Sequence record: SRR31156797_4857 | Length of the DNA stretch: 44,768 nucleotides | Reading direction: 5' to 3' (one strand) | In this document: piece after piece, positions 19,474 through 38,726 of the stretch | How the letters are laid out: each line of letters begins with the position of its first letter | Numbering within the stretch: the stretch's first letter is position 1 | Notes under the pieces: generated by a model | What the model was told of the DNA's origin: nothing | What the model saw: only the letters and a program-made list of their open reading frames with translations | The model's database searches: none | Translations under genes and position numbers: made by a program

Positions 19474-19478
19474 GGTTT

Positions 19479-19961
19479 CTAAATTGACATTTTGTCGGCG
19501 AGTTTACTGGAGGTACGGCGCATATTCAGACTTAGCAGTCGCATAATTTTTTTTAACAGAGTAACTCCGAGCACCGGATGTTTTTGGGTGAGAATATCAA
19601 AACCTTTTTTTGTCAAGATAATGACAATCGTTGGTTGTCTAGCTATGACACTTGCAGAACGAGGTGATTTGTCAATGATAGACATTTCGCCTATGGTATT
19701 TCCTTTACCGAGCCTGGCTATCACACGAAGATCACCATTTGATGTTTTTTTCAGTACATCAAGCAGGCCCCTGACAACAAAGCACATGTAGTCGCCCTTT
19801 TCTCCTTCGGAGAAGAGGTAGTTCCCACGGAGTAACTCCATGTAGTTCATGTGCCTAGATATCGTGTCAAGCTCATCCATTTTAAAGGCATCAAACAGGG
19901 GAAGGCTGAGAATGAGATCTCGGGTTTTTTCCTCATTATCCGTAAGGTTCCGCTCGGCCAT
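19479..19961 (-). CDS. Stand-alone cyclic-nucleotide-binding (cNMP) domain protein
   Basis: [25 protein letters not shown] phosphate-binding cassette; no HTH. Confidence 0.9.
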
Positions 19962-20808: not shown

Positions 20809-22191
20809 TGTAAGAGGACCGGCTGCCTCTTTTTGTACCTGCGGCACCTTGATTTTTGTTGGTGCTTCCCGGTCAAGCCATGGGTCCATTGTGTACCCTA
20901 GAGCAGGCCATTGCATTCGGCCCTTTTTTCCATGGCAATCCATACAGTCTAGGGCTTGTTCAGTTTTTACTACGCCATGGCTTAATTTTCGATAGGTCAC
21001 TGTAGTGGTAAAGGTCGCATTGCCGCTGAAAGGAAGCCGAAGTTTTTGCATACCCTCTTGTGCTGCATCATGAGCGTTGTGGTTATGCAAGGCCAGTGTA
21101 CCGTCGTTTGCTAGAGTAGGGGCAACGAGATAACGGTATTTTCCGTCAATCATTTGTGTGGCCAGAGAAACTGTAAACGGAGCAATTTTTGATTGCGCAG
21201 TACGTGCTGAAGGCTTTTGCAGGATTGTGGTCTTGTTTTTCGCTGTTTTTTCACCCCTGGTATATACCTTGTCTTCACCGTTGTCCCAAAAATGGACAGG
21301 TTGAATATTTTGTGCCTGGATAATACCGAATTCTTTTACTAGAGCAAGAGGTCCGGTTTCGAGATTTTGATATACTGGTGGAGTGTGGGGGGCGAGCCAG
21401 TTCCAGCTGACAATTGACGGTGCTTCTGTTGCGTATTGTGGAATGTGGCAGGTGTTGCAAGTAATAAGCTCGGCGTGGTCGTTGAGTTGCTGCTGTTGGT
21501 GCGGTGAGGAGGTGTGACAGACTGCGCAGGCTTTAGTTTGGCGAAGTCCTGGCGCAGAAGCGATCTCTCTGGTAAAGGCATGTCGGTCGCCTGAGGGGTG
21601 GCAGTTCTGGCAAGTTAGTCCCGGGCCGTCTCCTTGCAGGTGAATGTCTTTTTCAATCCCATTGTGGAGTTTTTGCCCGGCCATTTTTTTACCTGTCCCG
21701 TGGCAGGTCATGCAGTTTGTCGATGAAGGGCTACCTACATTCCTGGCAATATAGATCAGGTTCAGGTCAGCTTTTGGTGCCCCTGCAACCCGCTCGTAGG
21801 TTCCTGTACTATCATGACATACCAAACAGTCGATATTGCTTGCTGCAGTAGGGTCAAAACGTTCGTCCAGCAGGTTGGTACTTATGTGACAGGTCAGACA
21901 TTGTGAAGGATTGGCACCAGCAGCAATGGAAAAAGTGGTCAACCCGTTTTTTTTGCTGAAGAGCGTTTCGCTGCCATTCATCTTACGTTGCCGCTTCCAT
22001 GTCCAGTGGCTCGAGCGAAGGAGGTCTTCACCCTGCTGCGTGTGGCAGGTTAAGCATTGAGCCGTTACATCACTTACCTTTGAAAACGGACCGTTGAGTT
22101 GTGCATGTTCCTGGGGCATGGCTCCTGCAGCAGGTATGTTCAGTATATATAGGGCGGCGGCTAATAAAGAAGTAGGCAGTGCTTTATTCAT
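20761..22191 (-). CDS. Octaheme c-type cytochrome, tetrathionate reductase (OTR) family, divergent
   Basis: 8 CxxCH (CLTCH x2, CLVCH, CMTCH, CQNCH, CAVCH, CNTCH, CMDCH), HWTW, HIPQYA, SKIAPF; signal peptide from ATG 22191. Confidence 0.85.
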
Positions 22192-23977
22192 CGTTGTTTC
22201 CTGAGTTTTGTGCAACCAGTGTTTGTATTTCCTGATGAGAAATTGTTTCGCGTTCCAGAAGGGCCTCTGTAATATCCTCAAGAATGGGCCTGTTCTCAAG
22301 GAGGATTCTTTTGCTGGTTGCATAAGCATTTTGGACAAGGGTGTTCACTTCATCGTCGATCAGGTTAGCGGTCTTTTCGCTCATGATCTGTCCGGGCTGA
22401 CCATTGAGGGGGTCTGTAGGTTTAAAAGTTAAAGGTCCTACAGCCGCACTCATTCCCCAGTCACAAACCATTTTTCGTGAAATATCAGAGACCCTTTCAA
22501 TATCATTTCCAGCACCTGTGGTGATTTCGTCAAAAACGATCTCTTCTGCTACGCGGCCCCCGAGGAGAATACATAAGGTATTAAAGAGGTAGGTACGGTC
22601 CTGAGAGTTACGCTCCTCATCCGGGAGCTGCATAGTTACGCCCAGTGCACGTCCACGGGGTATGATGGTCACCTTGTGCACAGGGTCTGTGCCAGGAAGC
22701 ATCCAGGCGACCAGAGCGTGTCCTGCTTCGTGATAAGCTGTCACTTTTTTTTCACGATCTGTGATTATTAAACTGCGCCGCTCGGCACCCATCAGTACCT
22801 TGTCCTTGGCAGACTCAAGGATGTCCATGGTGATCTGGGAGCCTTTCTGGCGAGCCATGAGAAGAGCCGCTTCATTAATCATGTTTGCCAGCTGTGCCCC
22901 AGAAAAACCCGGGGTTGCCTTGGCCACGACCTTCCAGTTAACATCTTCTGCAACATTGGTACGTTGAGCGTGTACCTTGAGGATTTTTTCGCGACCTCCA
23001 ACATCGGGAAGCGGAACCATTACCTGGCGATCAAATCGGCCAGGCCGTAATAGTGCCGGATCAAGAATGTCCTGGCGGTTGGTTGCAGCGATGACGATGA
23101 CGTGATCATTGGCTTCAAATCCGTCCATTTCAACCAGAAGCTGATTCAAGGTTTGTTCTCTCTCGTCATTGCCTCCGCCTCCACCGGAACTGCGATGACG
23201 GCCAACGGCATCTATCTCATCTATAAAGAGGATGCAGGGCGCCTTCTTTTTTCCTTCTGTGAAAAGATCCCGTACCCTTGAAGCACCTATGCCGACATAC
23301 ATTTCGACAAAATTAGATCCGCTGATAGAAAAGAAGGGGACGCCGGCCTCGCCTGCAATGGCTTTTGCTAAAATCGTCTTGCCTGTACCGGGTTCACCGT
23401 AAAGGAGTACACCGGTTGGGATACGTGCTCCAGCATCAGTAAAGATTGCAGGATTTTTTAGAAAATCGACAATTTCCTTCACTTCTTCTTTTGCTTCTTC
23501 AATGCCTGCAACATCATCCAAGGTAACTTGTGACTGCTCGGGATCAACTAATTTTGCCCTGCTTTTGCCAAACGCCATGGCTTTTCCACCAGATTGTCCG
23601 CCCCCTTTGCGCATGTAAAAAAACCAGATAAGGATGATGAGCAGAAACGGCACCCAGTTGAGAAAGGTTTGGAAAAACCAGTGCGGTTTGGTTTCCTTCT
23701 TGACATGGATTGTCACCTTGCCGGCAATAAGTTTGCTAACAGCATCGTTTGCAGGGGGGGCAATGCTTTTGTATTTATCACCATCAGGAGTCTCCCAGGT
23801 AATTACATCGTCCATAACGCTGACTTCAGGGAGCAACCCCTTTTCAGCTTTTTGAAGAAATACATTGTATGGAACAGTGTGGTAAATGTCAGGTTGCTTG
23901 CTGAGAAAGTTGAACAAGAAAAGTACAGCTAGGGCAATGATAAGCCATATAGACAGGTTTTTGTAAAAATGACGCAC
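22184..23977 (-). CDS. ftsH: ATP-dependent zinc metalloprotease FtsH
   Basis: Two [50 protein letters not shown] start 23977 behind GGAG. Confidence 0.96.
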
Positions 23978-24428
23978 TGAAATCTCCGAATACCAGAAAT
24001 GATGAGCATGAATGGAGGCCGAAAGTTGCCAGACATATGAAAGCTGGTGGGTACAAAATAGAGCGGGTGGAGGCTCTGGGTACCGGAGTAATAGTAGTTT
24101 ACTATGGTAGTAGGTAGCCTCCTGCAGCTTGCAGTACCTGGATACGGGAAGACCCGTTGCAAAATGAGCTAACACAAAACTGAAAAAAGGTAAAGGAGGA
24201 GGGGTGGCTTGAAAAAAAAAATCCCTCCTGAGCCGCCACTCAGGAGGGAAAGCGCTTTCTCGTAACTGGTTATTTTCGAGTAGCAGAATAAGCACTGCAC
24301 AATGTGTTCCGAAATTATTCTTATTGGGAATAATTCCTTATTTTTTTCTAACTGATTGATATTGTGATATAGTTGGTGTTTTGCGGCTTGGTGAAAGGGG
24401 GGCCTTGTAGACGGCCTTTGTATTGCTT

Positions 24429-24445
24429 GGACGCATAATGCGCTT
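24429..24445. promoter_or_regulatory. Candidate enhancer (UAS) palindrome
   Basis: GGACGCATAATGCGCTT, variant of GGGCGCA-N3-TGCGCCC. Confidence 0.45.
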
Positions 24446-24603
24446 GCCGTTTGTGCTTTACGGCTTGTTTTGATCTGTTGTTTAAGTTTTGGTTTGTGCG
24501 ATTTATTTGTTGCTGTTATTGCTTAAGATGCTGTAAGTATGTTTGATTTAATGGTTGATTAAGGTGAAGTCGTAATTTCCTGTTTTTGGAAGAAATTAAT
24601 TGT

Positions 24604-24620
24604 GGGCGCAATGTGCTCCT
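24604..24620. promoter_or_regulatory. Candidate enhancer (UAS) palindrome
   Basis: GGGCGCAATGTGCTCCT. Confidence 0.5.
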
Positions 24621-24659
24621 GCTATTTACAGTAAAATTATAAATGTTGGTTGTTTTGGC

Positions 24660-24691
24660 TTGACACCTTTTAACGGGGGCGATATTAATAT
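24660..24691 (+). promoter_or_regulatory. Putative sigma70 promoter upstream of NrfD cassette 1
   Basis: TTGACA followed by TATTAA (17-bp spacer) or TAATAT (20-bp spacer). Confidence 0.45.
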
Positions 24692-24857
24692 TGTTAAGGT
24701 TAAGGTAAAAAATAATTTCAGAAGAACAGGTCGCCTTGAAAATATTGTATCAGGGTGGCTGTAAAATCAGGGAGGTGGAAAAGAGGTAGCTTGGAGTTGG
24801 GTTTTTATCCGCCAATAAGGTTCAGCTCTATTACATGGTTTTGTTAGGGAGGAGTTA

Positions 24858-24974
24858 ATGGAAGCAATTATTTTTCTCGTAGTCTGGTTAGGTGGTTCAG
24901 CTCTCCATACTCTGTTTGATGTCAAGGTTAAGCCTGTCCTGCAATCTCTCAGAGAAGAAAGCGATATGCCATAG
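24858..24974 (+). CDS. Small membrane protein, 38 aa (MEAIIFLVVWLGGSALHTLFDVKVKPVLQSLREESDMP), absent from the ORF track
   Basis: Strong GGGAGGAG RBS just upstream of ATG; hydrophobic N-terminal helix; directly upstream of nrfD-like gene. Confidence 0.65.
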   Translation: MEAIIFLVVWLGGSALHTLFDVKVKPVLQSLREESDMP

Positions 24975-25065
24975 CCGCTGGCAAGCTTGTTGCGGTGGGG
25001 ATATCGTATCGCTACCAGCTTTGAATGAATGTGATCGTACAAACAAGTCTGGAGGGTCTATAAAC

Positions 25066-26259
25066 ATGGAAAAAATTCTAGCAGCAGTGCTGCCTCAAGA
25101 GGGTGGTCTTGCTGGAAACGAATCAAGTGTTTACAACGGTGCAATTGCAATATTTGGTCTTTTAACCCTGGTAGGAGTTGCTTTTGGTGTGCATGCCATG
25201 TTTATAGGGCATGAACATGCTTATGGCGTCACCAGGGAGGTGCCGTGGGGGTTGCTTCTGGCAGCCTATGTGTTTTTTGTTGTTACTTCTACAGGGCTTT
25301 GCCTTGTTTCGTCCATTGGGCATGTCTTTGGCTTTACCGCATTTCAGCCCATAGCAAAAAGATCTGTTTTTCTCGCTATAGCTACTATTATTTCAGGTTT
25401 TTTGGTCATCGCTTTTGAAATTGAAAACCCTTGGCGGATGGCTGTGTATAATATTATTTCACCGAACTTAACTTCAAGTATCTGGTGGATGGGTACCCTG
25501 TATGGCGCATATCTTTTCTTTATGCTGGGTGAATTTGCCCTGCTGCAGGCGAATAAACATAAAATAGCAGGTGCTCTTGGCCTGTTAGGCGTTATTGCCG
25601 GTGTGGCTGCCCATTCAAACCTCGGGGCTGTTTTTGGCCTTCTGAATGGTAGGGAATTCTGGCATGGTCCATATATGCCAATTTACTTCATCACCTCAGC
25701 TATGATGTCTGGTTGTGCAACTGTCATTTTCTTTCATTGGCTTGGATACAAGATAAACGGTTGGAAAATGAGCAGCGAGCTTGAGAATTCTTTGTTTGCG
25801 GTTGCTAAGCTCGGTGCTTTGCTCTATGTCGTTATTATGTTTTTCACCACCTGGAAATTTATAACCGGCATTTCCGGGCATCCGCCAGGAAAGTATGAAG
25901 CTATAATGTCGCTCATTAACGGACCGTATGCCAAGAATTTCTGGATTGGTGAGGTTGCCATGGGGCTGGCGATTCCTTTTATTATCATTCTTGCTGTAAA
26001 GGCTCGCAATGTAACGGCTCTGGCTCTTGGCTCGGCATCCAGTATCATTGGTATCTTTTTCATGCGGTATGATTTGGTTATTGTAGGTCAGGTGGTTCCC
26101 GGGTTTCATAACATGAATATTGTTGATATGCCGCACCTGTTACCGTACACGCCAACACTGCATGAATGGGTTATTACCCTGTCTGGCTTCACCTTCTGTG
26201 CTGTGCTGTTCATGCTTGGAGAGCGGATGTTTCGAGGTCATCTCTCGGAAGATCACTGA
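25066..26259 (+). CDS. NrfD/PsrC-family integral membrane quinol-interacting subunit (copy 1)
   Basis: VTREVPWGLLLAAYVFFVVTSTG, FEIENPWR, SSIWWMGTLY, RYDLVIVGQ, YTPTLHEW; ~10 TM; ATG 25066 after GGAGG. Confidence 0.92.
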   Translation: MEKILAAVLPQEGGLAGNESSVYNGAIAIFGLLTLVGVAFGVHAMFIGHEHAYGVTREVPWGLLLAAYVFFVVTSTGLCLVSSIGHVFGFTAFQPIAKRSVFLAIATIISGFLVIAFEIENPWRMAVYNIISPNLTSSIWWMGTLYGAYLFFMLGEFALLQANKHKIAGALGLLGVIAGVAAHSNLGAVFGLLNGREFWHGPYMPIYFITSAMMSGCATVIFFHWLGYKINGWKMSSELENSLFAVAKLGALLYVVIMFFTTWKFITGISGHPPGKYEAIMSLINGPYAKNFWIGEVAMGLAIPFIIILAVKARNVTALALGSASSIIGIFFMRYDLVIVGQVVPGFHNMNIVDMPHLLPYTPTLHEWVITLSGFTFCAVLFMLGERMFRGHLSEDH

Positions 26260-26331
26260 TCTGCTGCTTCTAGGAAGGTGCTGAGACAAGTACCTTCCTG
26301 CTAACAGTCAGGAAGAGGAGGTAAGGGAATA

Positions 26332-26775
26332 ATGGCAAGAAAAAAGACAGAAATACAGGCAGTGCGACCTGATGTGGCTATCTATCCGATTGGTGTTGCA
26401 GCCAAATTGCTGAATGTTCACCCTCGAACCTTGCGTATTTATGAAAAGGAAGGGTTGATAAGGCCAGCTCACGTAGGCAGCCGGCGTATGTTTTCAGCTG
26501 ATGACATTCAATGGATTAACTGTATTCGTAGATTTATCCACGAAGAGGGAATCAGTATTCCGGGGCTCAAAAAGTTGCTAGAATTCGTGCCTTGCTGGGA
26601 AATTGCAGATTGCCCTTCAGATGTCCATGAGTGCTGTGGTGCCAGGGTTGACCGTTCTGTGCCAAGGAGCCTGCATAATGTGGGTGATGTGGCAGCGCGT
26701 AAAGTCGCCAAAGAAAAGGATGATGAAAAAAGAAAGGTTGCAGCCCAAAAAAAAAAGCACCAATCTACCGGCTAG
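26332..26775 (+). CDS. MerR-family (HspR-like) regulator with Cys-rich C-terminus (copy 1)
   Basis: YPIGVAAKLLNVHPRTLRIYEKEGLI HTH; PCWEIADCPSDVHECC. Confidence 0.92.
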   Translation: MARKKTEIQAVRPDVAIYPIGVAAKLLNVHPRTLRIYEKEGLIRPAHVGSRRMFSADDIQWINCIRRFIHEEGISIPGLKKLLEFVPCWEIADCPSDVHECCGARVDRSVPRSLHNVGDVAARKVAKEKDDEKRKVAAQKKKHQSTG

Positions 26776-26912
26776 TCCCTATACAGGCACAGCGGAGGTT
26801 GTCCTGGAGAATGTCAAATGGATAGTGCCTTGCCAGTTGTCTTGGGCAAGGTTGCGAGCGGTCGGTGGTGATACTTAAAGAAAGGGCTGAGTCCTCACAG
26901 GTCTGTGGAACG

Positions 26913-26953
26913 AAAAAGGCTATACTGCGTTGATTGCGGTATAGCCTTTTTTT
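26913..26953. terminator. Bidirectional intrinsic terminator
   Basis: AAAAAGGCTATACTGC-loop-GCGGTATAGCCTTTTTTT between convergent genes. Confidence 0.85.
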
Positions 26954-26998
26954 ATTGAGAAGTGGGCTTGGTTATTATTGATAGGGACTGGTTTGTAA

Positions 26999-29416
26999 CT
27001 ACAATGCATTAAGTTGCTTTTCGTGATTTTTGAGTTTTTCGTCTACCGGGCTGGAAAGGTCGTATTTCTTAATTTTTCTGCGCAGGGTGTCTTTGGATAT
27101 TTTCAGCTCGTCACAGGTGCGCATTTTGCGCCATTTGTTGCGATCTAGAGCAATGCTGATTGCCTGCTTTTCGATTTCTTCCAATGACTGTGCGCTACTG
27201 TTACTTGCGCCTGGTCCTGCGCTCTGCGATTCAGGAGCAGTGGAAAACGGTTCCGGCAGGTGATGTGACTGGATATATCCACCGTCGCAGAGAATAAACG
27301 AGTACTCAACAATGTTTTCGAGCTCTCGGATGTTGCCGGGATAGTCGTAACGCATGAGGATGGACAGGGCTCCGCTGGCCATGCCAACAATATCTTTGCC
27401 CTGTTCTGTACTGTATTTCTTGATAAAATGGTCAATCAGTAGAGGGATGTCTTCCTTTCGGTCCCGCAGGGGAGGCAGGTTAATCTTTACAACGTTAAGT
27501 CGGTAAAAGAGATCGTCACGAAAGAGTCCTTCCTTGACCAGGGTCTGTAAATCACGATTAGTTGCGGTAATGATTCGGACGTCTGCTTTGACCGGGGTGT
27601 TGGACCCGAGAGGTTCATATACCTTTTCCTGAAGTACTCTGAGTAACTTTACCTGTACACTTGTTGGGATATCTCCTATTTCGTCCAGGAAGAGAGTGCC
27701 GCCATCTGCGGCAGCAAACCTGCCAGCCTTATCTTTGCGTGCGTCGGTAAAGGCTCCCGCTTTATACCCGAACAGTTCAGATTCGAGCAAAGTCTCTGGC
27801 AATGCTCCACAGTTAACAACTATAAAAGGTTTTTCCTTCCGGGAGCTTGCGTTGAAAAGAGCCCTGGCTATAAGTTCTTTTCCTGTCCCGCTTTCCCCTA
27901 AGATTAACACAGTGCTGGGGCTGCGGGCAATGTCGGGCATGATGTTGAACAATCGCTGCATACTTTTTGACTTGGAAATGATTTCGTCAAAAGTGTATTT
28001 TTGTTTGAGTTGATTTCTCAGGGCGGTGATGGTTGTCAGATCGCGAAATGTTTCCACCCCACCGATGATGTTTCCTTCATGGTCGGTGAGGGGAGCAGCG
28101 CTGATGCTTATAGGTATTTTTTCTCCTTTCTTGTTGAGAATAGTGATGGAGCGGTTGGAGGCAGCCTTGCCTGTGTACAGGCTCTCTGCAATGGCACAGT
28201 TTTTACCGCAGATAGAGGAGTGGAATATGTCTGAGCAGGATTTCCCCATTGCATCTTCTCTCTCCCATCCGGTGATCTTTTCAGCCGCCTGATTAAATGA
28301 GGTTACTTTCCAGTTTCGGTCAACTGTAAACACTCCGTCTGCCACCGAATCCAGGATAAGATTTTCGCGTATGGAAGAGGTGTTGTCGCGAAATGTTTCA
28401 ATCCCGCCTATGGTGTTGCCGAAATCGTCTAGAAGGGGGGAAGAGCTGATGGTAACCGGGATCGAGTTGCCTGCTTTGCCTTTTATAAAAATTGAACGGT
28501 CTATAAATGAACTGTTAAGATCAATCGCCTTTTGCAGCAGGCAGTTTGACCCGCAAACACTCGAATGAAAGATAGTATTGCAGGGCTTACCAATAACCTC
28601 TTCCCGAGTCCATCCTGTAATCTGTTCTGCTGCGGTATTAAAGGAGGTGATGAGTCGGTTTTTGTCAATGGTAAAGACCCCGTCTGCAACCGAAGACAGG
28701 ATAAGGTCGCTGTAGAGTTCGTCTGTGCAGTCGTGAAAGGTTTGCACTCCACCAATGACCAACCCGTTCGGGTCAAACAGGGGGGAGGACTTGAGGGAGA
28801 GGGGAAAGGACTGACCGTCTTTATTGGCCATGGAAACCGTGTGAACTGCAATGGGTTTTTCCTCGGTAATGGAACGCTGGATAAGGCAGCTGTTGCCGCA
28901 TATTTCAGGAGGGAACACCTGGTTGCATTTTTTGCCAATAACTTCCTGTCGAGTCCAACCTGTCAGTTTTTCTGCACTGTTGTTGAATGTTGTAATCACA
29001 AGCTCTTTATTGACGGTCAATACCCCTTCTTCGACCGAGTTGAGGAGTAGCTGGTGATGAACGGATTGGTTAGTGGTGTCAAGGGTGATCAGGATATCTC
29101 CAGGCTTATTTGTTGAGCCGTGCAGTGGTATGATCGAGGCGAGCACCGGTTGAGGTTGGGTGTCAATCTTGATACTGGGAAGTAGTACAGATTGCTTCGA
29201 AATAGGGTGCTCGTCTTTTGCCTGTTCAATCAATCTATCCAGTGAAGAAGCATTGCCGTCCATGGGAAATAATTCGCCTAGGGTTTTCCCTTGCATTTCA
29301 AAAACTTTTTTACAGGTAAGCTGTTCGGCGTCTGAGTTGGCACTGGTCACCCGGCGCTGTTTATCAAGAATAAAAACAGCTAAAGGAGAGTGTAGGGTTT
29401 CAAATGGTTGCGACAT
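26999..29416 (-). CDS. sigma54-dependent activator with four PAS domains (three carrying CX8CX3C), OrpR-like
   Basis: Repeated ILxSVADGVFTxD..FNxAAExITGW; [31 protein letters not shown]-terminal HTH. Confidence 0.92.
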   Translation of the reverse strand: MSQPFETLHSPLAVFILDKQRRVTSANSDAEQLTCKKVFEMQGKTLGELFPMDGNASSLDRLIEQAKDEHPISKQSVLLPSIKIDTQPQPVLASIIPLHGSTNKPGDILITLDTTNQSVHHQLLLNSVEEGVLTVNKELVITTFNNSAEKLTGWTRQEVIGKKCNQVFPPEICGNSCLIQRSITEEKPIAVHTVSMANKDGQSFPLSLKSSPLFDPNGLVIGGVQTFHDCTDELYSDLILSSVADGVFTIDKNRLITSFNTAAEQITGWTREEVIGKPCNTIFHSSVCGSNCLLQKAIDLNSSFIDRSIFIKGKAGNSIPVTISSSPLLDDFGNTIGGIETFRDNTSSIRENLILDSVADGVFTVDRNWKVTSFNQAAEKITGWEREDAMGKSCSDIFHSSICGKNCAIAESLYTGKAASNRSITILNKKGEKIPISISAAPLTDHEGNIIGGVETFRDLTTITALRNQLKQKYTFDEIISKSKSMQRLFNIMPDIARSPSTVLILGESGTGKELIARALFNASSRKEKPFIVVNCGALPETLLESELFGYKAGAFTDARKDKAGRFAAADGGTLFLDEIGDIPTSVQVKLLRVLQEKVYEPLGSNTPVKADVRIITATNRDLQTLVKEGLFRDDLFYRLNVVKINLPPLRDRKEDIPLLIDHFIKKYSTEQGKDIVGMASGALSILMRYDYPGNIRELENIVEYSFILCDGGYIQSHHLPEPFSTAPESQSAGPGASNSSAQSLEEIEKQAISIALDRNKWRKMRTCDELKISKDTLRRKIKKYDLSSPVDEKLKNHEKQLNAL

Positions 29417-29715
29417 GTTTTTTTGTGTGCCTCACGTGTGACGTTATGGATTTGTTGAATGGACAAGAATGCCTGTTTAAAATTTTTTAACTATTGAAAG
29501 GTGTCCAAATAATATTCATCTTTCTTTTTATGGTCAATGGGATTGCTTATGTGGCTGTGTAAAGCATTGAAGCTTTTGATGGTGGTGCTACCACCTTGTT
29601 CGCCATGAGAGCTCTTGCCTTTTTCGTGTTTTTAGGTATATTGGCCGTTTTATTTCCCCGCTTTTTGGGGAGGTTTAGCCTAAAGTATATTTTTTAGAAG
29701 CGTTACACATTGTAG

Positions 29716-29885
29716 TATCGGTCTCTTGAAAACTGGTTTTTTCAGTCAAGGCCAAGGTATGATTTGATTTTTATCGTAGGCATATGGTTAATATTCCGAG
29801 GATATTTTTTTAATCATAACCAGGTTAGCGTGGGTTGTGAGATTCTGCGAGATTGGAAGAAAAGCTTTTTTTAAGACAGCCTATA
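29716..29885. mobile_element. Degenerate MITE-like repeat, related to the 39367-39529 element
   Basis: Core AGGCATATGGTTAATATTCCGAGG resembles AGGCATATAATTGATAT..TCCGAAGG; imperfect terminal inverted repeats (TCGGTCTCTTGAAAA / TTTTTAAGACAGCCTA). Confidence 0.45.
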
Positions 29886-29927
29886 GTTGTTTAACGTCTT
29901 TTCTTATATTTTCATTGGGGGCGTGTA

Positions 29928-30683
29928 ATGAATGTCGATGAATTAGAAAAAAAGGAAAATGAAGGGGTGGATAACCTTCCCTCGTTGGAGCGTAGAACTT
30001 TTCTTCGTGCCGGTTTAGCGGTTACCGGACTTTTTATGGGGGGTACGGTAATGTCGTTAACCTCTGCAGAAAAGGTTCTTGGGGCCATGGGGGGGCAGGA
30101 GTCGGTAGCAAAATATCCATATAGTCCGCATTACAGCATGGTTATGCGTCAACATCTTTGTGTTGATTGTGAGCTTTGTATGGAAGCCTGTGTGCGCACA
30201 AATCATGTCCCTCACTATGGGTACAGGACCACTATTCTTGAGCGTTATCGCGAGACTGGGCCAACAAGCAAAGAGCGGATATTTACCCCGGTTCTTTGTA
30301 ATCAGTGTAATCGTCCCCCCTGTGTGCGAGTTTGCCCGACCGTGGCGACTTACAAGGACAAAAAAACCGGTATCATCGTGATGGATGAAAAAAAATGTAT
30401 CGGTTGTAAGACTTGTATGGCTGCCTGTCCCTATAATGCCCGTTATTTTAACGAGGAAACTCGGGCCGTAGATAAATGTAACTTTTGTTTTGATACCCGT
30501 CTCTCGAAAGGGATGAAGGATACGGCATGCGTGGAAGCCTGTCCGGCTGGGGTAAGGGTGTTCGGGGACTTGAGCGATCCGGCCAGTGAAGTATACAGCC
30601 TGGTGCACAAGCCCGGAACAGTTGTCTGGGTGCTTCGCCCTGAAACAGGTGCTTTGCCGAATGTATTTTACATGAACGCCTAA
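29928..30683 (+). CDS. Tat-exported 4x[4Fe-4S] protein, NrfC/TtrB/DsrO family
   Basis: ERRTFL Tat motif; CVDCELCMEAC, CNQCNRPPCVRVCP, CIGCKTCMAACP, CNFC...CVEACP. Confidence 0.93.
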   Translation: MNVDELEKKENEGVDNLPSLERRTFLRAGLAVTGLFMGGTVMSLTSAEKVLGAMGGQESVAKYPYSPHYSMVMRQHLCVDCELCMEACVRTNHVPHYGYRTTILERYRETGPTSKERIFTPVLCNQCNRPPCVRVCPTVATYKDKKTGIIVMDEKKCIGCKTCMAACPYNARYFNEETRAVDKCNFCFDTRLSKGMKDTACVEACPAGVRVFGDLSDPASEVYSLVHKPGTVVWVLRPETGALPNVFYMNA

Positions 30684-30703
30684 CCCATTTAAGGAGAGAT
30701 ACA

Positions 30704-31408
30704 ATGAGAATGTCATTCAAGTTGGCAACGATTTTGGGGGTAGCAATTGTGGCTGGCGGGCTCCAGGTAGACAGGGCAGCTCAAGCAACGGCCGAACTAG
30801 AAAAACAACCTGTTGAAGAAAAGGTGCTTCATTCATATGGCGACACGTTGATACTGAAAAAAGAGCCGGTTGGTAATATGTTCAACCACAATTCCCATGT
30901 CATTGAATATGAGCTTTCCTGCGATTCCTGTCACCCGGATCTCTTTGAAAGAAAGCGTGGAGCTGCAAGGGATAATGGCGACTACACCATGGCTTCTTTG
31001 GAAGAAGGGATGTATTGCGGTGCTTGTCACGATGGCGATACAGCTTTTAACACCGTTGATGAAGATACCTGTGTTACCTGTCATGGAAGCGATATGGTAG
31101 AGCCGGAAACAGTGGTTTTTGTTAAACCTGTAAAAGCCGTAATTTTTAACCACACTGAGCATAAGGAAATGGGCTTTGATTGCGCAAGCTGTCATGATGA
31201 ACTTTTCGAGATGCGAGTCGGTGCAGCTGAAGAACAGCCTGAGAAATTCACCATGGCTGCTCTGTATGATGGAAAATTTTGCGGAGCCTGTCACAATGGA
31301 GATGATGCCTTTGCATCTGATACACTTTGCACCACTTGCCACATAGGTGTGCAGGGGTTTGAAAGGATGCATGGAGGAGGAGAAAAAACTGCTGAGAAGG
31401 AGCATTAA
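30704..31408 (+). CDS. Hexaheme cytochrome c with two c7-type triheme domains
   Basis: Signal peptide; 6 CxxCH; duplicated FNH..H..CxxCH..(Y/F)TMA.L..G..CGACH.G..AF...CxTCH unit. Confidence 0.9.
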   Translation: MRMSFKLATILGVAIVAGGLQVDRAAQATAELEKQPVEEKVLHSYGDTLILKKEPVGNMFNHNSHVIEYELSCDSCHPDLFERKRGAARDNGDYTMASLEEGMYCGACHDGDTAFNTVDEDTCVTCHGSDMVEPETVVFVKPVKAVIFNHTEHKEMGFDCASCHDELFEMRVGAAEEQPEKFTMAALYDGKFCGACHNGDDAFASDTLCTTCHIGVQGFERMHGGGEKTAEKEH

Positions 31409-31444
31409 TAAGGTTCAGTAGTTCAATCTTTACGTTGGTTTTGG

Positions 31445-31490
31445 AAAAGCCGCATCGGAAGCATTATGCTTCCGATGCGGCTTTTTTTTT
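31445..31490 (+). terminator. Intrinsic terminator
   Basis: AAAAGCCGCATCGGAAGCA-TTA-TGCTTCCGATGCGGC followed by a T9 run. Confidence 0.92.
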
Positions 31491-32088
31491 AGGCATGGGA
31501 CTGTAAGTATAATTTACTGCTGTCGTTGTCCTATAAGTTGTAAATTGAAAAGAGGGAGCTGGTGTTTTTTTCGAATGCTCATTCTTCGTAGGTTTTTCTT
31601 CACGCACTATTTACTGGTGCCGTCTTGGCCCCTGCTGCCTCGTCCTTTCCGTTGTTTCTTCGTTGCTGCTCCATCGGTCATAAGCACAGGTTTGTTTGAA
31701 CCAGATTAGAGATTTGTATCTTTCTAATAGTTGTTTCTAATAAAGCCTTTCCATCTAGCAGTCCTGTTCTAGCTATTTTTTTTACTCTGTAACGGATCAA
31801 TCTGTGGTGCGCGAAGGATTGTATTTGTTGAAGTGTAGGCTCCTGTAGGGCGCAAAATACAGTTTTTGCCGCTCCCTGTTTTTTAAATACCTGAAATAAT
31901 TTGATTTAACTGTAGCCTTCTGTTTGCTGAAGTTTGTTCTTTATTTTGCCGCCTCTTCTGAGGGGAAACGGGTTGCGAGCTATAAGTGGTTGTATGCTCG
32001 TCGTATAGTAATGGTGCCTATGTGCTGCGGTTTTTTTGCTGGTGGCGATGTTTTGGGAGCGTTTTGAGTCATAGGTGGCAGGGGCAAG

Positions 32089-32105
32089 GGGCGCATTGTG
32101 CGCCA
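32089..32105. promoter_or_regulatory. Enhancer (UAS) palindrome for the sigma54 promoter at 32235
   Basis: GGGCGCATTGTGCGCCA, ~130 bp upstream of -24. Confidence 0.65.
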
Positions 32106-32234
32106 TTGGCGTAGTTAATTTACAAGTTTCTTCTGCCTGTAAAACGTGTAACTTTACGTTTGCATATATATTTAATCCCCTTTTTCCGGGGAGTTAGTTT
32201 TTTTCCGTTCTTGTTTGCAGCAGAAGTGTGGTTT

Positions 32235-32249
32235 TGGCACAGCCCTTGC
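32235..32249 (+). promoter_or_regulatory. sigma54 (-24/-12) promoter of NrfD cassette 2
   Basis: TGGCAC-AGCCC-TTGC, consensus spacing. Confidence 0.85.
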
Positions 32250-32301
32250 GATAATAAAGGTAAAGATTCGCAACCACCTGCGGACAACGAGAAAGAGGAA
32301 G

Positions 32302-32538
32302 ATGATGAACATTCTCCAGCAAAGCCCAATGAAAGAAGTCAATAATGATGGCGGTCATTTTTTGATTACTTGGCTTAAGGCCCATATTGGGCAAATCAGT
32401 GAATGGTTTTGGTTCTGCTTTTCTTTCCTGCTTTTTATTGCTCTTGGACCTTTTTCAGCGATAGTTGCATTGATCGGACTGAAGTCCTTGGCAAGTAAAG
32501 AACAGCAGCAGAAAATGGTAGAGCCAGCTCGGTTATAG
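32302..32538 (+). CDS. Small membrane protein, 78 aa
   Basis: GAGG RBS; hydrophobic WFWFCFSFLLFIALGPFSAIVALIGL segment; downstream of the sigma54 promoter. Confidence 0.7.
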   Translation: MMNILQQSPMKEVNNDGGHFLITWLKAHIGQISEWFWFCFSFLLFIALGPFSAIVALIGLKSLASKEQQQKMVEPARL

Positions 32539-32575
32539 AAAATTAACTCAGTACAAAAAGATGAGGAGGTACACA

Positions 32576-33763
32576 ATGGTAAACAGTTTCCCTTTTGCAG
32601 CTACTGCAGAGCCCGAAGTAGCGAGTCCGTCAGTAACCTATTTATCCGGAGCTTTCGCTCTTTTGCTCTTTGTCGGCGTGGTAACCGGTTTGTATGGTTT
32701 TTTCGTCGGGCATGAGCATGTGTATAATGTAAGTCGTGAGGTGCCATGGGGATTGCTCATATCTACATACGCATTTTTTGCAATAACTTCCACCGGCCTT
32801 TGCCTGCTGGCAGCAATTAGTCATGTTTTCGGTGGAAACAAACTGGCCCCTTTGGCAAACAGGATGGTCTGGATTTCCCTCATTACTATCGTGAGTGGGT
32901 TTGTTGTGATTGGGATGGAGATTGCCAATCCCTGGCGGATGGCGATTTACAATATTATCTCTCCCAATATAACATCTAATATTTGGTGGATGGGTACCCT
33001 CTATGGTATGGCCCTCGGATTTATTCTGCTCGAGTTCTGGCTCATTCTTAGTGAGAAGTACAAGCTTGCTTTATTCCTGGGTATTCTGGGTGGCCTTGCT
33101 GAAGTTGCTGCTAATACATGTCTGGGCGGTGTATTTGCCACTCTTGCCTCACGGCCATTTTGGTATGGTGCTCAGTTGCCTGTATACTTTCTTGCTTGTG
33201 CATTTCTCTCTGGCGCGTCTGCAGCCATTGTTTTTACTCACTTTGCTTATGCGATACGGGGTAAACGGATGGAAGAATGCGTTTTTGAGGGTGTTCAGTC
33301 AGCAGGCAAGGTTCTGTTACTTATGCTTATCTTGGTGAGTGTGTCTACTTTCTGGAAAATGGCATCTTTTTATGTGGGCGGATCTTCCGCAGGAAGAACG
33401 GCTGCTGATGCTCTGTACACTGGGCCGTTGTCAACTAACTTCTGGATGCTTGAAGTAGGTGTTGGCCTGATCGCCCCTATTCTTTTGCTCAGCTTAACCA
33501 GAATGAAGAGCCTGATGGCGCTGTCTGCGTCGGGATTGATGGCTCTGGTCGGTATGTTCATTGCACGTCTGGATATGGTAACTGCTGGTCAAATCGTGCC
33601 TCAGCTTGCAGAGTTTGATGTCAGTGCTCCCGTGTATATAAACTATACCCCCTCTGGTCCTGAATGGATTGTTGCTATGGCTGGTATTGGTCTGACAGGT
33701 ATGCTTTTTCTCCAGGGTGAAAGATTCTTTGGTAAGCGATTCTCTGGTCAGGACAGTCACTGA
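32576..33763 (+). CDS. NrfD/PsrC-family membrane subunit (copy 2)
   Basis: VSREVPWGLLISTYAFFAITSTG, MEIANPWR, SNIWWMGTLY, YTPSGPEW; ATG 32576 after AGGAGGT. Confidence 0.92.
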   Translation: MVNSFPFAATAEPEVASPSVTYLSGAFALLLFVGVVTGLYGFFVGHEHVYNVSREVPWGLLISTYAFFAITSTGLCLLAAISHVFGGNKLAPLANRMVWISLITIVSGFVVIGMEIANPWRMAIYNIISPNITSNIWWMGTLYGMALGFILLEFWLILSEKYKLALFLGILGGLAEVAANTCLGGVFATLASRPFWYGAQLPVYFLACAFLSGASAAIVFTHFAYAIRGKRMEECVFEGVQSAGKVLLLMLILVSVSTFWKMASFYVGGSSAGRTAADALYTGPLSTNFWMLEVGVGLIAPILLLSLTRMKSLMALSASGLMALVGMFIARLDMVTAGQIVPQLAEFDVSAPVYINYTPSGPEWIVAMAGIGLTGMLFLQGERFFGKRFSGQDSH

Positions 33764-33834
33764 TTTTTCAATGGACATTAGAGAATGTGGCACAGCTTTA
33801 GGGTTGTGTCACAAATTACTAAAAGAGGCGTGAG

Positions 33835-34191
33835 ATGATCGACGAGAAAAAGGCAATCTTCACCATAGGAGTTGCAGCCCAGATGTTGTCTGTTCATCCG
33901 AGAACATTGAGGATTTACGAAGAAGAAGGGCTCGTGATTCCGATGCGTAAGGGCAAGTGGCGTTACTATACAATGAATGACATTAAGTGGATAGAATGTT
34001 TACGTGAGATGATTCACGAACATGGTGTGTCTATTGCTGCTGTAAAGAAATTGTTGAAGTATACACCTTGCTGGAACATCACTGATTGTCCTTTTGAAAA
34101 ACGGAAACAGTGTACGGCCTTTATGTCAAACGGCCTTATTCCGAAAAAGATTGATAAGCAGAAGTCTAGAAAAGTACAAAATTTGCAATAG
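33835..34191 (+). CDS. MerR-family (HspR-like) regulator with Cys-rich C-terminus (copy 2)
   Basis: FTIGVAAQMLSVHPRTLRIYEEEGLV; PCWNITDCPFEKRKQC. Confidence 0.92.
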   Translation: MIDEKKAIFTIGVAAQMLSVHPRTLRIYEEEGLVIPMRKGKWRYYTMNDIKWIECLREMIHEHGVSIAAVKKLLKYTPCWNITDCPFEKRKQCTAFMSNGLIPKKIDKQKSRKVQNLQ

Positions 34192-34229
34192 GAAGTATTG
34201 CCTCCGTGCAAAATGGTACAGGTTAATTG

Positions 34230-34273
34230 AAAGCCCCGTTCTGAAGCATATCTTCGGAGCGGGGCTTTTTTTT
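34230..34273. terminator. Intrinsic terminator between convergent genes
   Basis: AAAGCCCCGTTCTGAAG-CATAT-CTTCGGAGCGGGGC followed by a T run. Confidence 0.85.
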
Positions 34274-34299
34274 CGGGAGTTTTGGGGGGTGGGAGGGGG

Positions 34300-34698
34300 T
34301 TAAATTCGGCGTCGATGGAATAGGGAGTAGTATCGAAATGTTGCAGTAGCATGTGAGGTGATGCCCGAGAAAAAAATAATCCCTAGTACAGGCCATATTG
34401 GATTGATCCCAGTGTGCTGAAGTATTCCCAGAATCAGAATCTTGACTATGATTAAAAAGCCTCGATTCTGAAAAATCCATTTCCCGTTACTGAAAAGGTC
34501 TGCACCCATCATGAGTAGTCCGCTTGCAGCTGTAACAATATACCAAGGGATTAAGAGCGGTGCGGCTACATCAAAATAGAGGCCTCCGGTGTAAACAGCC
34601 ATGCCGCAAAGGTGGAGGCTCCTGGATATGATGTTAACCCATCGCTTACCTATGAATGTTCTTGATTCTGAGGGGAAAAATGTTTCTCGTAAACGCAT
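34300..34698 (-). CDS. Hypothetical membrane protein (~4 TM)
   Basis: 132 aa hydrophobic ORF (RWVNIISRSLHL..., SGITSHA); start chosen at ATG 34698, could be 34788. Confidence 0.7.
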   Translation of the reverse strand: MRLRETFFPSESRTFIGKRWVNIISRSLHLCGMAVYTGGLYFDVAAPLLIPWYIVTAASGLLMMGADLFSNGKWIFQNRGFLIIVKILILGILQHTGINPIWPVLGIIFFSGITSHATATFRYYSLFHRRRI

Positions 34699-35010
34699 TA
34701 AATAGTGTGGGTATGGTGTGAGTGGTAGGGGAGCAGGCTTTAGGTCTAATAAGGGAAAACCAAGATTTGATATACCCGCATAGGTCATTATGCGTCAACT
34801 GCTTTTTAGTTCATAATAAAATGTGGGGTGGTAATGATCTTTAAGCTGCATTATATAGTGTTGGCAATAAATGATAGCACCTGTAAAAAGCTTTTGCTGG
34901 TTACTGCTGCTTGAGAGGTATCCATTTTTGTTCATGGTAAGCGATAGCCTGACCTGTTACCTGGGTAGGGTTGTATTCGCTTTTTAAAAATATTCATATG
35001 GGTCGTCTTT

Positions 35011-36717
35011 ATGAAACTTTTTTTAACGTCTGTTTCTTGTTTGGCGCTTAGCTGCTGTGTTGTGCTGTCTTGTGCTGCCTCGCCCCTCGGTTCCCCTCGT
35101 CCTGAAGCTCAGGCGAATTTTCAGCAGTTACTCGAAACAAAGAGTTGTCCCGGCTGTGATCTTGCCGGGGCCAATATGATCCGTGTGGATCTGCGTGGGG
35201 TGGATCTGGAAGGTGCCAATCTTGCTGGAGCTAAATTGTTTCTGGCGGATTTGTCTGGTGCAAATTTGAAAAATTCGAATTTGCAAGGTGCGTCTCTTGG
35301 CGGGGCTGATCTTGCCGGGGCAGACCTTCGTGGTGCGAACTTGACAGGTGCAGTTCTTGAGGGTGCTTTTCTTGAAACAGCTAAGATCGATGGCGATTTT
35401 ATCACCCGTCCCCATGTTGATGAGGAATCCTTCGCAGGCTCAGGGGAAAAAGTATATGTGCCGGCAGAAGATCAGTCTAAACAAATGCCGTATTCCCATG
35501 ATGTGGCCGTCGGGGAGCGAAAGGATCTTGAATCGCCTCCTCCTGCGATTCAAAGTGCTGATTCTGGAGACAGTGAACAGGCTGTGCCGCAAAGCGAGGT
35601 TTCCCCTGCTTCTTCCTTAGCCAGCCAGAGTCCTGAGCCGTCTGTGACTGAAGAGGCAACATCTAAAAAGATCGTTCCCATGGCTGATGCAGTTGTCACG
35701 GAAGTAGACGTGGAATCAGTAAAAAGTGTTCCTCCAGTAAGAGTAGAACCTGAGCAGGACGCAAATCTGGTATCGTCCAAAAAAATCCCGGTCATTGAAC
35801 CTGTGGCTAAGACGCCCGTGGTTGAAGAAAAGGCTGTCAATCCGGAAGCCGAAGCAGCTGTTGACCAGGTCGCTAAGAGCAGTGTTGCCGAAGAGTCTCT
35901 TCTTAGCTCGTCGCCGCCGCAGGCCGATAAAAAATCTACCGACAGGATCGAGCAAGTTGGTGTTATTGAGGAGGACATTCAGATCGCAGATAAGCCAACG
36001 GATTTAGCAGAGGATATCGTGACCGGGTCGGTAGCGGGAGGCGTTGCTGCGAAAACTGAAGCTGGAGAGGGCGTTAGCGAGCCTTTCAAGGCTGCAGAGG
36101 AAAATGATGGTACCGTGCCTGAGGCGGCATCATTGGATGAGGTTGCAGGCAGTTCTGGTCAAAAAACGACGGCTGTAGCTCCTGCTCTGCCTCAGGATGA
36201 GCGCATGGCCAGTGGGGAAGATGCAGTCGGTCAAAAGCAGGAAAAGGAGTTGCAAACTGACCAGGGTGTTTCATCCATGATCGCACAGATCGAAGAGGAA
36301 GCGCAGCAGCAACAGCCAGATACAGCAGCAGGGATGTACACGGTTGAAACTCCTGAGCAGGCTGCTGCAAAGCAGCAACTGATTATTGAGAAGCTTTTTG
36401 ATGAAGAGCGCTGTGTTGGCTGTGATTTGTCAGGGATGGATCTTGCTGGGAAAAATTTTAAAGAAATAGATCTTGAGCGGGTTAACTTTCAAGGCTGTAA
36501 TTTACAAGGAGCAGATTTTGAAGAGGCTAATCTGAAAGGTGCCAATTTTCGCGATGCGGATTTGCAAAATGCCGATTTTAGTGAGGCGGATATCTATCGT
36601 GCTGATTTCTCCAATGCCAATCTGACCGGTGCACGCTTTGAAGAGGCACTTATGGATTCTGCTAATTTCACTGGGGCTAAGGGTTTGGTACTCGGAGATG
36701 AGGAGTTGGTAGAGTAA
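35011..36717 (+). CDS. Exported pentapeptide-repeat protein with two repeat domains and a long acidic linker
   Basis: Cys-containing signal; CPGCDL + A(D/N)LxG repeats; CVGCDL + A(D/N)F repeats. Confidence 0.88.
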   Translation: MKLFLTSVSCLALSCCVVLSCAASPLGSPRPEAQANFQQLLETKSCPGCDLAGANMIRVDLRGVDLEGANLAGAKLFLADLSGANLKNSNLQGASLGGADLAGADLRGANLTGAVLEGAFLETAKIDGDFITRPHVDEESFAGSGEKVYVPAEDQSKQMPYSHDVAVGERKDLESPPPAIQSADSGDSEQAVPQSEVSPASSLASQSPEPSVTEEATSKKIVPMADAVVTEVDVESVKSVPPVRVEPEQDANLVSSKKIPVIEPVAKTPVVEEKAVNPEAEAAVDQVAKSSVAEESLLSSSPPQADKKSTDRIEQVGVIEEDIQIADKPTDLAEDIVTGSVAGGVAAKTEAGEGVSEPFKAAEENDGTVPEAASLDEVAGSSGQKTTAVAPALPQDERMASGEDAVGQKQEKELQTDQGVSSMIAQIEEEAQQQQPDTAAGMYTVETPEQAAAKQQLIIEKLFDEERCVGCDLSGMDLAGKNFKEIDLERVNFQGCNLQGADFEEANLKGANFRDADLQNADFSEADIYRADFSNANLTGARFEEALMDSANFTGAKGLVLGDEELVE

Positions 36718-38724: not shown

Positions 38725-38726
38725 CT

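Follow-up and report, generated by a model that had tools for sequence, protein, structure and literature searches.

How do bacteria of the order Desulfobulbales connect their quinone pool to periplasmic cytochromes? These sulfate reducers, sulfur disproportionators and relatives of cable bacteria are reported to lack the Qrc complex (PMC10553843, legend of S9 Fig), which makes this connection an open question. We analysed a 44,768-nucleotide (nt) stretch of DNA from record SRR31156797_4857 (hereafter the window), in which an initial annotation had marked positions 24296-34191 as a candidate redox module: two cassettes, each encoding a small protein, an NrfD-type membrane subunit and a MerR regulator, set around a sigma54 activator and an operon for an iron-sulfur (FeS) protein and a hexaheme cytochrome. 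Open reading frame (ORF) listing and Pfam/NCBIfam profile scans found all of these genes where that annotation had placed them. NrfD1, the membrane subunit of the first cassette, is 97% identical to NrfD1 of Desulfogranum marinum, and we place the organism in Desulfogranum. In our reading, to which we assign a probability of roughly 55%, the locus encodes an Nrf/Mcc/Qrc-like quinone:cytochrome module of the NrfCD type with alternative, differently regulated membrane anchors.

Gene content and conservation of the cluster

Cassette 1 begins with pep38 (24858-24974, + strand), which has a strong ribosome-binding site and encodes a predicted single-helix membrane protein of 38 amino acids (aa). 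It is followed by nrfD1 (25066-26259, +; 397 aa, PF03916 at 3e-33), whose conserved ATG with a ribosome-binding site lies inside a longer GTG ORF, by a stem-loop without a T-run (26271-26300, +; found by folding of the spacer), by merR1 (26332-26775, +; Pfam MerR_1, HspR-like winged helix), and, where merR1 and the activator gene converge, by a terminator read from the sequence as a hairpin with a T-run (26918-26953). The same order recurs in cassette 2, which consists of small78 (32302-32538, +; encoding a membrane protein of 78 aa that has a single long hydrophobic segment), nrfD2 (32561-33763, +; PF03916 at 3e-26), a stem-loop (33786-33813, +; from spacer folding), merR2 (33835-34191, +), which encodes a paralogue of MerR1, and a terminator read as a hairpin with a T-run (34233-34273, +). 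Gene calls, folding and profile scans bore out this twin architecture. Neither small protein has a Pfam or NCBIfam family, and in alignments pep38 has the conserved residues F6, W10, H17, T18 and P26, while small78 has a conserved GPF. In relatives, a hairpin of -10 kcal/mol or lower was found in 57/72 nrfD1-merR1 spacers, the sequences of which differ, and in 32/38 nrfD2-merR2 spacers, both counted without a shuffle control.

Between the cassettes lie, as had been proposed, the gene for a sigma54 activator (26999-29416, -), with four PAS domains, an AAA+ domain and a Fis-type helix-turn-helix (HTH) by Pfam, and a separately terminated operon. The operon encodes an NrfC-type ferredoxin of 251 aa with a twin-arginine translocation (Tat) signal (RRTFLR) and 16 Cys (29928-30683, +), and a periplasmic hexaheme cytochrome with two c7-type triheme domains and six CxxCH motifs (30704-31408, +). 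It ends in a terminator (31445-31492, +) composed of a hairpin with 20-nt perfect arms (31445-31485) and a T-run.

To follow the cluster in other genomes, NrfD1 was used as a query against species-representative genomes. This yielded 76 loci, the named ones nearly all from Desulfobulbales, with NrfD1 identities of 65-97%. The window proteins were placed on these loci by tblastn and counted. MerR1 is encoded directly 3' of NrfD1 in 69/73 loci with room downstream, and pep38 lies 5' of NrfD1 in 69/72 loci with room upstream. Thirty-three loci extend 8 kb or more beyond NrfD1 on each side (full-flank loci). Among these, the activator was found in 26, the FeS protein in 25, NrfD2 and MerR2 in 24 each, small78 in 21, the hexaheme cytochrome in 20 (at least 35% identity), and FtsH in 19. 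These counts confirm that the genes are co-conserved, as a synteny search had been expected to reveal. Within the order, an NrfD1 orthologue (E <= 1e-150) is present in 88/201 sampled genomes; in a phylum-wide sample, 37/301 genomes had an NrfD1 match at 1e-30.

For five of the full-flank loci without an FeS gene, the whole genome was searched, and all five genomes had exactly one FeS orthologue elsewhere (67-78% identity). Each of these distant FeS genes adjoins a hexaheme gene and a divergent activator gene, followed in one case by NrfD2. Because these five genomes carry the FeS-hexaheme-activator unit elsewhere, the cluster is, by this comparison, a set of two conserved units that are usually, though not always, adjacent: ftsH divergent from pep38-nrfD1-merR1, and the activator gene divergent from FeS-hexaheme, which is followed by small78-nrfD2-merR2. 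Even where the second unit is parted from NrfD1 (L107), NrfD2 stays directly 3' of FeS-hexaheme. In some loci NrfD2 was not seen within 10 kb.

Partners of the NrfD subunits

Both membrane subunits clearly belong to the NrfD family, with PF03916 scores of 116 bits (NrfD1) and 93 bits (NrfD2) against a gathering score of 25.8. The structural model of NrfD1 has a mean pLDDT of 81.5 and ten helices. Its best fold match is ActC (template modelling (TM) score 0.76-0.79), followed by ActF and then by the eight-helix PsrC; across ActC and ActF the TM scores span 0.59-0.79 at a sequence identity of only 14-18%. A phmmer search of the PDB with NrfD1 gave no match, and a Protein Atlas search with a stored homologue returned generic NrfD clusters only. 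NrfD2 is about 42% identical to NrfD1 and forms a separate clade in a tree, which was a quick tree only. At 68 shared positions, conservation reaches at least 95% in both paralogues. They are distinguished by 19 clade-specific fixed differences, several of them protonatable, which cluster at residues 179-209 and include H183N, E197P, H200Y and Y203Q.

The FeS protein has 16 invariant Cys, enough for a predicted four [4Fe-4S] clusters, and its best PDB match is PsrB (2vpw_B, 6.4e-40). It scores below the equivalog cut-offs for NrfC (170 vs 378 bits) and DsrO (167 vs 200), and likewise for TtrB. The hexaheme cytochrome matches TIGR04257 (2.8e-38) and has 41.7 bits against the QrcA profile, for which the cut-off is 180. 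Its best PDB match is 3ov0_A (5.2e-46), which we take to be Geobacter GSU1996, and there are weak matches to the ActA chains 6lod_A and 8k9e_A.

Neither NrfD gene adjoins the FeS gene as an nrfCD pair in the window, but such adjacency is seen in Desulfocapsaceae and in more distant relatives. In five of the latter (L077, L080, L082, L083 and L096), nrfD, nrfC and a c7-type cytochrome gene are adjacent, without MerR or small genes, and the NrfD is 45-57% identical. Comparison shows a simpler form of the system, a single nrfD-nrfC-c7 operon, the membrane-subunit gene of which was duplicated and detached in Desulfobulbales. In eight Desulfocapsaceae loci (L062, L064, L068-L070 and L074-L076) a second NrfD1 copy lies directly 5' of the FeS gene, about 5.6-5.9 kb from the first. 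The two copies have 94.2-99.6% DNA identity in 6/8 loci, the likeness ends at the limits of the coding region, and in the quick tree the copies pair within each genome. Such identity, confined to the coding region in copies that pair by genome, looks like concerted evolution in which gene conversion links two copies of equivalent function.

A third line of evidence comes from D. japonicum, in which the Pfam NrfD profile finds six genes, four of them outside the module. These four adjoin FeS partners of their own, in dsrMKOP, a formate dehydrogenase (Fdh) cluster and two Hyb hydrogenase clusters, and the FeS protein of the module is among the few without an adjacent NrfD. Together, the plain operons, the converted FeS-adjacent copies and this accounting of partners point to the NrfDs serving the module's own FeS/hexaheme pair. 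The concern that they might be partnered elsewhere was thereby partly tested, in one genome, and every other NrfD there has its own FeS partner beside it.

The same genome also holds evidence for a different arrangement, in which one or both NrfDs anchor a module encoded elsewhere, such as an orphan PhsA/PsrA-like molybdoenzyme, and their adjacency to the FeS/hexaheme operon is regulatory or historical. D. japonicum encodes a PhsA/PsrA-like molybdopterin protein and an FeS subunit with no NrfD gene beside them (L101, 4683-7758), and PsrC is reported to be absent from relatives of cable bacteria (PMC13047784). A sister NrfD clade, 45-48% identical, occurs in L084, where a one-strand block (5286-11915) encodes a molybdopterin oxidoreductase, an FeS protein, an NrfD (45% identical to NrfD1), two rhodanese-like proteins and a NapC/c7-type multiheme cytochrome. 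This arrangement, though a rival to be reckoned with, seems improbable to us for the NrfDs of the module, given the plain nrfD-nrfC-c7 operons in relatives, the near identity between the FeS-adjacent and cassette copies of NrfD1 in Desulfocapsaceae, and the position of NrfD2 directly 3' of FeS-hexaheme when that unit is parted from NrfD1.

Promoters, regulators and neighbouring genes

The initial annotation had proposed that the two anchors are separately regulated. We searched for sigma54 sites with the GG and GC in place and scored them out of 11. Upstream of cassette 2 is the predicted sigma54 promoter TGGCAC-N5-TTGC (32235-32250, +), 52 nt before the small78 start, with GG at -24 and GC at -12, the right spacing and palindromes upstream (the transcription start being predicted). 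Such a site precedes small78 in 34/35 loci, mostly scoring 10-11. Before the other module genes sigma54 sites occur in 2-20% of loci, all weak: 7/70 for pep38, 5/83 for NrfD1, 5/54 for FeS, 3/71 for MerR1 and 2/46 for the activator gene. On the strength of this difference, cassette 2 is predicted to have a conserved sigma54 promoter, while cassette 1 and the FeS operon are not, and the idea of separate regulation is strengthened. No sigma54 site scoring at least 9 was found upstream of the operon-type NrfDs of L077, L078, L080, L082, L083 and L096, so that ancestral sigma54 control is without support.

Cassette 1 has instead a sigma70-type promoter candidate (24660-24688, +; TTGACA, 17 nt, TATTAA), the sigma70-like -35 hexamer of which is conserved in a footprint of 32 sequences. 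The FeS/hexaheme operon likewise has a sigma70-type candidate (29615-29642, +; TTGCCT, 16 nt, TATATT), which falls in a block conserved over 26 sequences and would give a leader of about 285 nt. In the leader of cassette 1, of about 170 nt, two conserved blocks lie at 24768-24822 around CAGGGAGGTGG and CCGCCAATAAGG; a search of 24000-35200 against Rfam at E up to 1 gave no match, so these blocks match no known RNA family.

The differing promoter types bear on a suggestion made in the initial annotation, namely that the two NrfDs belong permanently to the same complex, like the ActC/ActF pair, and are not alternatives. Such a heterodimer would fit the NrfD1 model, which matches ActC best and ActF next, the ten helices of each protein (modelled for NrfD1) and the presence of both cassettes in 24/33 full-flank loci. 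Permanent subunits are harder to reconcile with two kinds of promoter, with the single NrfD per operon of more distant relatives, and with genomes in which the NrfD1 unit and the activator-FeS-heme-NrfD2 unit are far apart or no NrfD2 lies within 10 kb. We therefore regard alternative anchors as the better explanation and a heterodimer as a poor bet.

A palindrome of the form GCGCA-N3-TGCGC accompanies the sigma54 promoter. At no more than one mismatch it has four matches in the window against 0.70 expected (2/100 shuffles reach four), and all four fall inside the module. An exact copy, GCGCATTGTGCGC (32091-32103), lies 144 nt 5' of the sigma54 promoter of cassette 2 and is a candidate activator site. 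Two copies with one mismatch lie between ftsH and pep38: ACGCA-N3-TGCGC (24431-24443), a candidate activator-binding site, and GCGCA-N3-TGCTC (24606-24618), 54 nt 5' of the cassette 1 -35 hexamer. Across loci the palindrome is densest between the hexaheme gene and small78, at 1.62 per kb (at least one in 22/31 regions), and reaches 0.78 per kb between ftsH and pep38 (at least one in 18/34). The spacers between the activator and FeS genes and between merR1 and the activator gene, like the remainder of the loci, have 0.05-0.09 per kb. Tandem copies are often 33-34 bp apart. Such a distribution is better explained by activator sites upstream of cassette 2 and of the divergent ftsH(-otr) genes than by a feature of cassette 1. 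The initial annotation had noted shared palindromes upstream of both cassettes; the sites are indeed present, but the copies near cassette 1 fit the ftsH(-otr) side better. The fourth match, the exact palindrome GCGCATTTTGCGC (27119-27131), falls within the 3'-terminal part of the activator gene, where it could be due to chance or to autoregulation.

The activator itself belongs to the sigma54 enhancer-binding proteins (PF00158 at 3.1e-70, HTH_8 at 8.5e-11). Its loop reads GAFTDA, one change from the consensus GAFTGA. It has no receiver domain. PAS2-4 each contain C-x8-C-x3-C, and C394, C403 and C407 of PAS4 are invariant in 40/40 sequences, with the other PAS Cys conserved at 78-100%. The description of this protein as a multi-Fe-S PAS activator was not supported, since three Cys per domain in this spacing are no recognised Fe-S motif. 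Nor could we substantiate three Cys-based redox sensors in the locus, as a cofactor cannot be read from sequence. The adjacent PAS-Cys activator probably targets cassette 2, and the architecture fits one enhancer-binding protein that would activate cassette 2 as well as the ftsH unit.

The ftsH paralogue (22184-24295, -, by its longest ORF; AAA and M41 protease domains by Pfam) is divergent from cassette 1. An N-terminal alignment of 34 sequences indicated that the first ~103 residues of the long ORF are non-conserved, which places the real start near 23977, at an FYKNLS motif. Related genomes have 4-5 FtsH paralogues each, and ftsH is divergent from cassette 1 in 30/57 loci. In 20/28 loci a GG-N10-GC site scoring at least 8/11 is found 260-405 nt ahead of the FYKNLS codons, with palindromes 125-165 nt further upstream. 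In the window the corresponding sigma54-like -24/-12 element is CGGAACACATTGTGCA (24297-24312, -), which points at ftsH.

Next to ftsH, on the same strand, is a gene that the initial annotation had overlooked. Its product (20761-22191, -) is an Otr-like octaheme c-type cytochrome that bears a signal peptide as well as eight CxxCH motifs. The gene starts with an ATG (22191-22189) inside the end of ftsH, whose stop codon is at 22186-22184; the 8-nt overlap reads ATGAATAA, and the two genes appear to be co-translated through translational coupling. The statement that the module has no catalytic subunit holds for 24296-34191, but not for its immediate surroundings, where this candidate reductase gene is coupled to ftsH. 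The protein reaches 297 bits against TIGR04315, below the cut-off of 375, and matches 1sp3_A, presumably the octaheme tetrathionate reductase of Shewanella, over residues 80-494 (E 1.1e-77), near full length. The Otr-like gene is 3' of the module's ftsH in 12/30 loci. It is a candidate terminal reductase in Desulfogranum, not a universal partner.

MerR1 and MerR2 are predicted members of the MerR family, with 60-62 bits against MerR_1 (cut-off 21.6), and not HspR equivalogs: HspR is the best-matching profile of both, with 64.5 and 67.3 bits, below its equivalog cut-off of 105. Four Cys are invariant in each, C64, C88, C94 and C102 in 63/63 MerR1 sequences and C55, C79, C85 and C93 in 40/40 MerR2 sequences, with the common spacing C-x23-C-x5-C-x7-C. 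Like SoxR, both proteins have an N-terminal MerR winged helix and a Cys cluster near the C-terminus. The [2Fe-2S] motif of SoxR is C-x2-C-x-C-x5-C, unlike the spacing found here, and the SoxR profile gives 16 bits against a cut-off of 117. Three relatives have only two Cys-MerR genes per genome, both within the module. The MerR2 model has a pLDDT of 74, and in Foldseek its N-terminal winged HTH alone matches solved MerR proteins. The Cys region is of low confidence (pLDDT 36-75), and the helix after the winged HTH is short (residues 47-62); dimerisation helices of MerR proteins are usually longer. The promoter candidates of cassette 1 and the FeS operon have 16-17-nt spacers, and MerR activators act at promoters with spacers of 19-20 nt. 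These four-Cys MerR/HspR-like proteins form a putative subfamily of regulators that is clearly delimited and uncharacterised.

The HspR scores, and the recurrence of FtsH paralogues beside NrfD-family genes in three arrangements (the window; L088 and L089; L102), would also suit cassettes that are envelope-stress or quality-control units, composed of an HspR-like repressor, FtsH and a membrane protein, whose NrfD-like proteins have lost their respiratory role. We consider this very improbable. NrfD1 is conserved at 65-97%, the 68 positions shared by both paralogues have been retained, NrfD1 occurs in operons with FeS proteins and cytochromes in relatives, and the FtsH adjacency extends to only 30/57 loci.

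FtsH, regulator and NrfD genes are also found together with different paralogues. A third NrfD clade, 37-43% identical, is encoded in L088 (7941-9155) and L089 (7144-11990). In L089 a Cys-rich MerR gene precedes the NrfD gene, and two small ORFs and another FtsH gene follow it; in L088 the NrfD gene is near genes for FtsH and a receiver-PAS sigma54 activator. In D. japonicum (L102, 2236-6840) another FtsH paralogue lies directly 5' of genes for an HmcB-like FeS protein and an HmcC-like membrane protein. After cassette 2 the window has a 162-aa ORF without a family (34300-34788, -), kept in L003 and L004, and a gene for a 568-aa pentapeptide-repeat protein (35011-36717, +). The flanks (143-12287, 12634-19961, 37237-42024 and 42833-44296) contain genes for flagellar FlgD, FliK, FliJ, FliI, FliH, FliG and FliF, a CheA-like kinase with CheY and CheX genes, the trp operon, a second sigma54 activator with a cNMP-binding protein, and a further multiheme cytochrome with weak ExtM/ExtN-like matches.

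Relation to known complexes and proposed function

No characterised complex matches the module. Every NCBIfam equivalog cut-off was missed, and full-text literature searches found no account of such an arrangement and nothing joining NrfD, MerR and sigma54, in line with the view that the module had not been described. The closest counterparts are the Nrf, Mcc and Sir systems, in which a multiheme reductase is fed by an NrfC/NrfD quinol dehydrogenase. NrfABCD of Escherichia coli, MccACD and SirCD share with the module a Tat four-cluster NrfC-type protein, a cofactor-less NrfD and a multiheme carrier (PMC8076601, PMC11434368 and PMC13047784 touch on this subunit make-up). They have a multiheme reductase, and a multiheme candidate for such a role, the Otr-like protein, is encoded near the module, which has no NrfA or MccA. 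The module differs further in its 2 x c7 hexaheme carrier and in its detached, duplicated NrfD, each copy of which, unlike in these systems, comes with a four-Cys MerR and a small membrane protein of its own.

QrcABCD, the menaquinone reductase of sulfate reducers, resembles the module in combining a hexaheme cytochrome, an FeS protein and a ten-helix NrfD, and there are weak QrcA and QrcC hits. With Qrc reported absent from Desulfobulbales, its place there may be vacant. These remain well below cut-off (QrcA 41.7 vs 180, QrcC 95 vs 400), NrfD1 and NrfD2 have no QrcD hit, and the locus has no ORF with a QrcB-like molybdopterin fold. The hydrogenases and formate dehydrogenase of relatives carry membrane subunits of their own. 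Alternative complex III likewise has two NrfD-type subunits, of a fold like that of the module's NrfD (ActC/ActF), and a c7-like multiheme subunit, but the module's FeS protein is a stand-alone 251-aa protein and not part of a fused ActB, and the NrfD genes have separate promoters. ORF scans gave no molybdopterin family in the locus; they included no dedicated search for ActD, ActE or ActF. DsrMKJOP can be set aside on scores (DsrP 45.7 and 23.8 bits vs 350, DsrO 167 vs 200), and D. japonicum has its canonical dsrMK(J)OP at another site (L097).

Geobacter Cbc4 (CbcSTU), described in a preprint as a quinol:cytochrome oxidoreductase in which CbcS is a membrane-anchored NapC/NirT-type tetraheme cytochrome (bioRxiv 10.1101/2025.04.14.648717), also combines a cytochrome, a four-cluster FeS protein and an NrfD-like subunit. 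The cytochrome of the module is a soluble c7-type hexaheme protein with no NapC/NirT match. The potential-dependent Geobacter set of ImcH, CbcL and CbcBA shares the concept of alternative inner-membrane quinol oxidoreductases, but the alternatives of the module differ only in the NrfD subunit. Among that set, cbcBA is under sigma54 control. Loci of a similar kind, with an NrfH-NrfD-NrfC-triheme order and no assigned role, are reported for Thermosulfurimonas dismutans and Dissulfuribacter thermophilus (PMC4911364, PMC5276818). In D. thermophilus, according to PMC13490349, regulator genes lie on the same strand as one NrfD gene and FeS and tetraheme genes on the opposite one, and this NrfD was much more abundant under sulfite/H2 (log2 fold change -6.9). 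These NrfD/NrfC/cytochrome loci, which we compared by description only, differ in heme numbers. A separate dsrOhPh-tetrahaem locus is mentioned for cable bacteria and some Desulfobulbales in PMC13047784; it too was compared by description only.

We propose that the Tat four-cluster ferredoxin and the hexaheme c7-type cytochrome would dock on a ten-helix, cofactor-less NrfD, and that the complex would connect the menaquinone pool with electron acceptors or donors in the periplasm, as its families and synteny suggest. In the host organism the likely partner would be the Otr-like octaheme reductase encoded beside ftsH. NrfD1 with pep38 and MerR1 would be expressed from the sigma70-type promoter candidate, without a conserved sigma54 site. 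For NrfD2 with small78 and MerR2, the conserved sigma54 promoter is preceded by tandem palindromes, and this cassette would be the target of the adjacent activator. A redox or substrate signal at the activator may then change the anchor, and hence the quinone or proton chemistry, of the same FeS/cytochrome arm. With an intra-operon hairpin ahead of its gene, each four-Cys MerR would be produced in small amounts; it may act back, by way of a metal, cluster or thiol switch, on the cassette that encodes it.

Several observations weigh against this interpretation. The regulator-target link is drawn from adjacency and motif architecture only. In the window, the sigma54 site is not above chance (one match at no more than one mismatch vs 2.1 expected), and the element before ftsH is weak (8/11). 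No shared exact palindrome that might serve as a MerR operator was found upstream of pep38 (best 8/70) or upstream of the FeS gene, where the best was AATGA-N8-TCATT in 13/55. The FeS gene is not within the locus in 8/33 full-flank loci, the backbone of the NrfD tree is unresolved, and the Otr-like protein, given its limited occurrence beside ftsH, cannot be a general partner. The L084 operon and the PhsA-like/FeS pair of D. japonicum imply that an NrfD of such a kind could serve a molybdoenzyme.

A more elaborate version of the proposal is full subunit exchange. In response to a redox or substrate signal, the activator would induce NrfD2 and its small subunit together with a dedicated FtsH that removes the resident NrfD1, and the Otr-like reductase where present; the FeS/cytochrome arm would be re-plugged onto an anchor of different quinone or proton chemistry, and the co-transcribed MerRs would form a new Fe-S/thiol-switch branch of the MerR family, each reporting its own anchor. 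We regard this as unlikely.

What distinguishes the module from the systems compared here is an uncharacterised four-Cys regulator, paired by gene order with each of two versions of a membrane subunit that are predicted to be separately regulated, and kept across many Desulfobulbales. New here are the sigma54 promoter and tandem palindromes of cassette 2, the ftsH(-otr) link, the simpler operons, the converted NrfD1 copies and the four-Cys pattern of the MerR proteins. The recurrent adjacency of FtsH and NrfD hints at proteolytic control of respiratory membrane subunits. A true anchor swap under sigma54 would be a compact and testable case of a respiratory complex being re-tuned through exchange of its membrane subunit. 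With orthologues in 88/201 genomes of the order and an NrfD1 identity of 65-97%, the module is a prime candidate for the missing link between the quinone pool and periplasmic cytochromes in Desulfobulbales.

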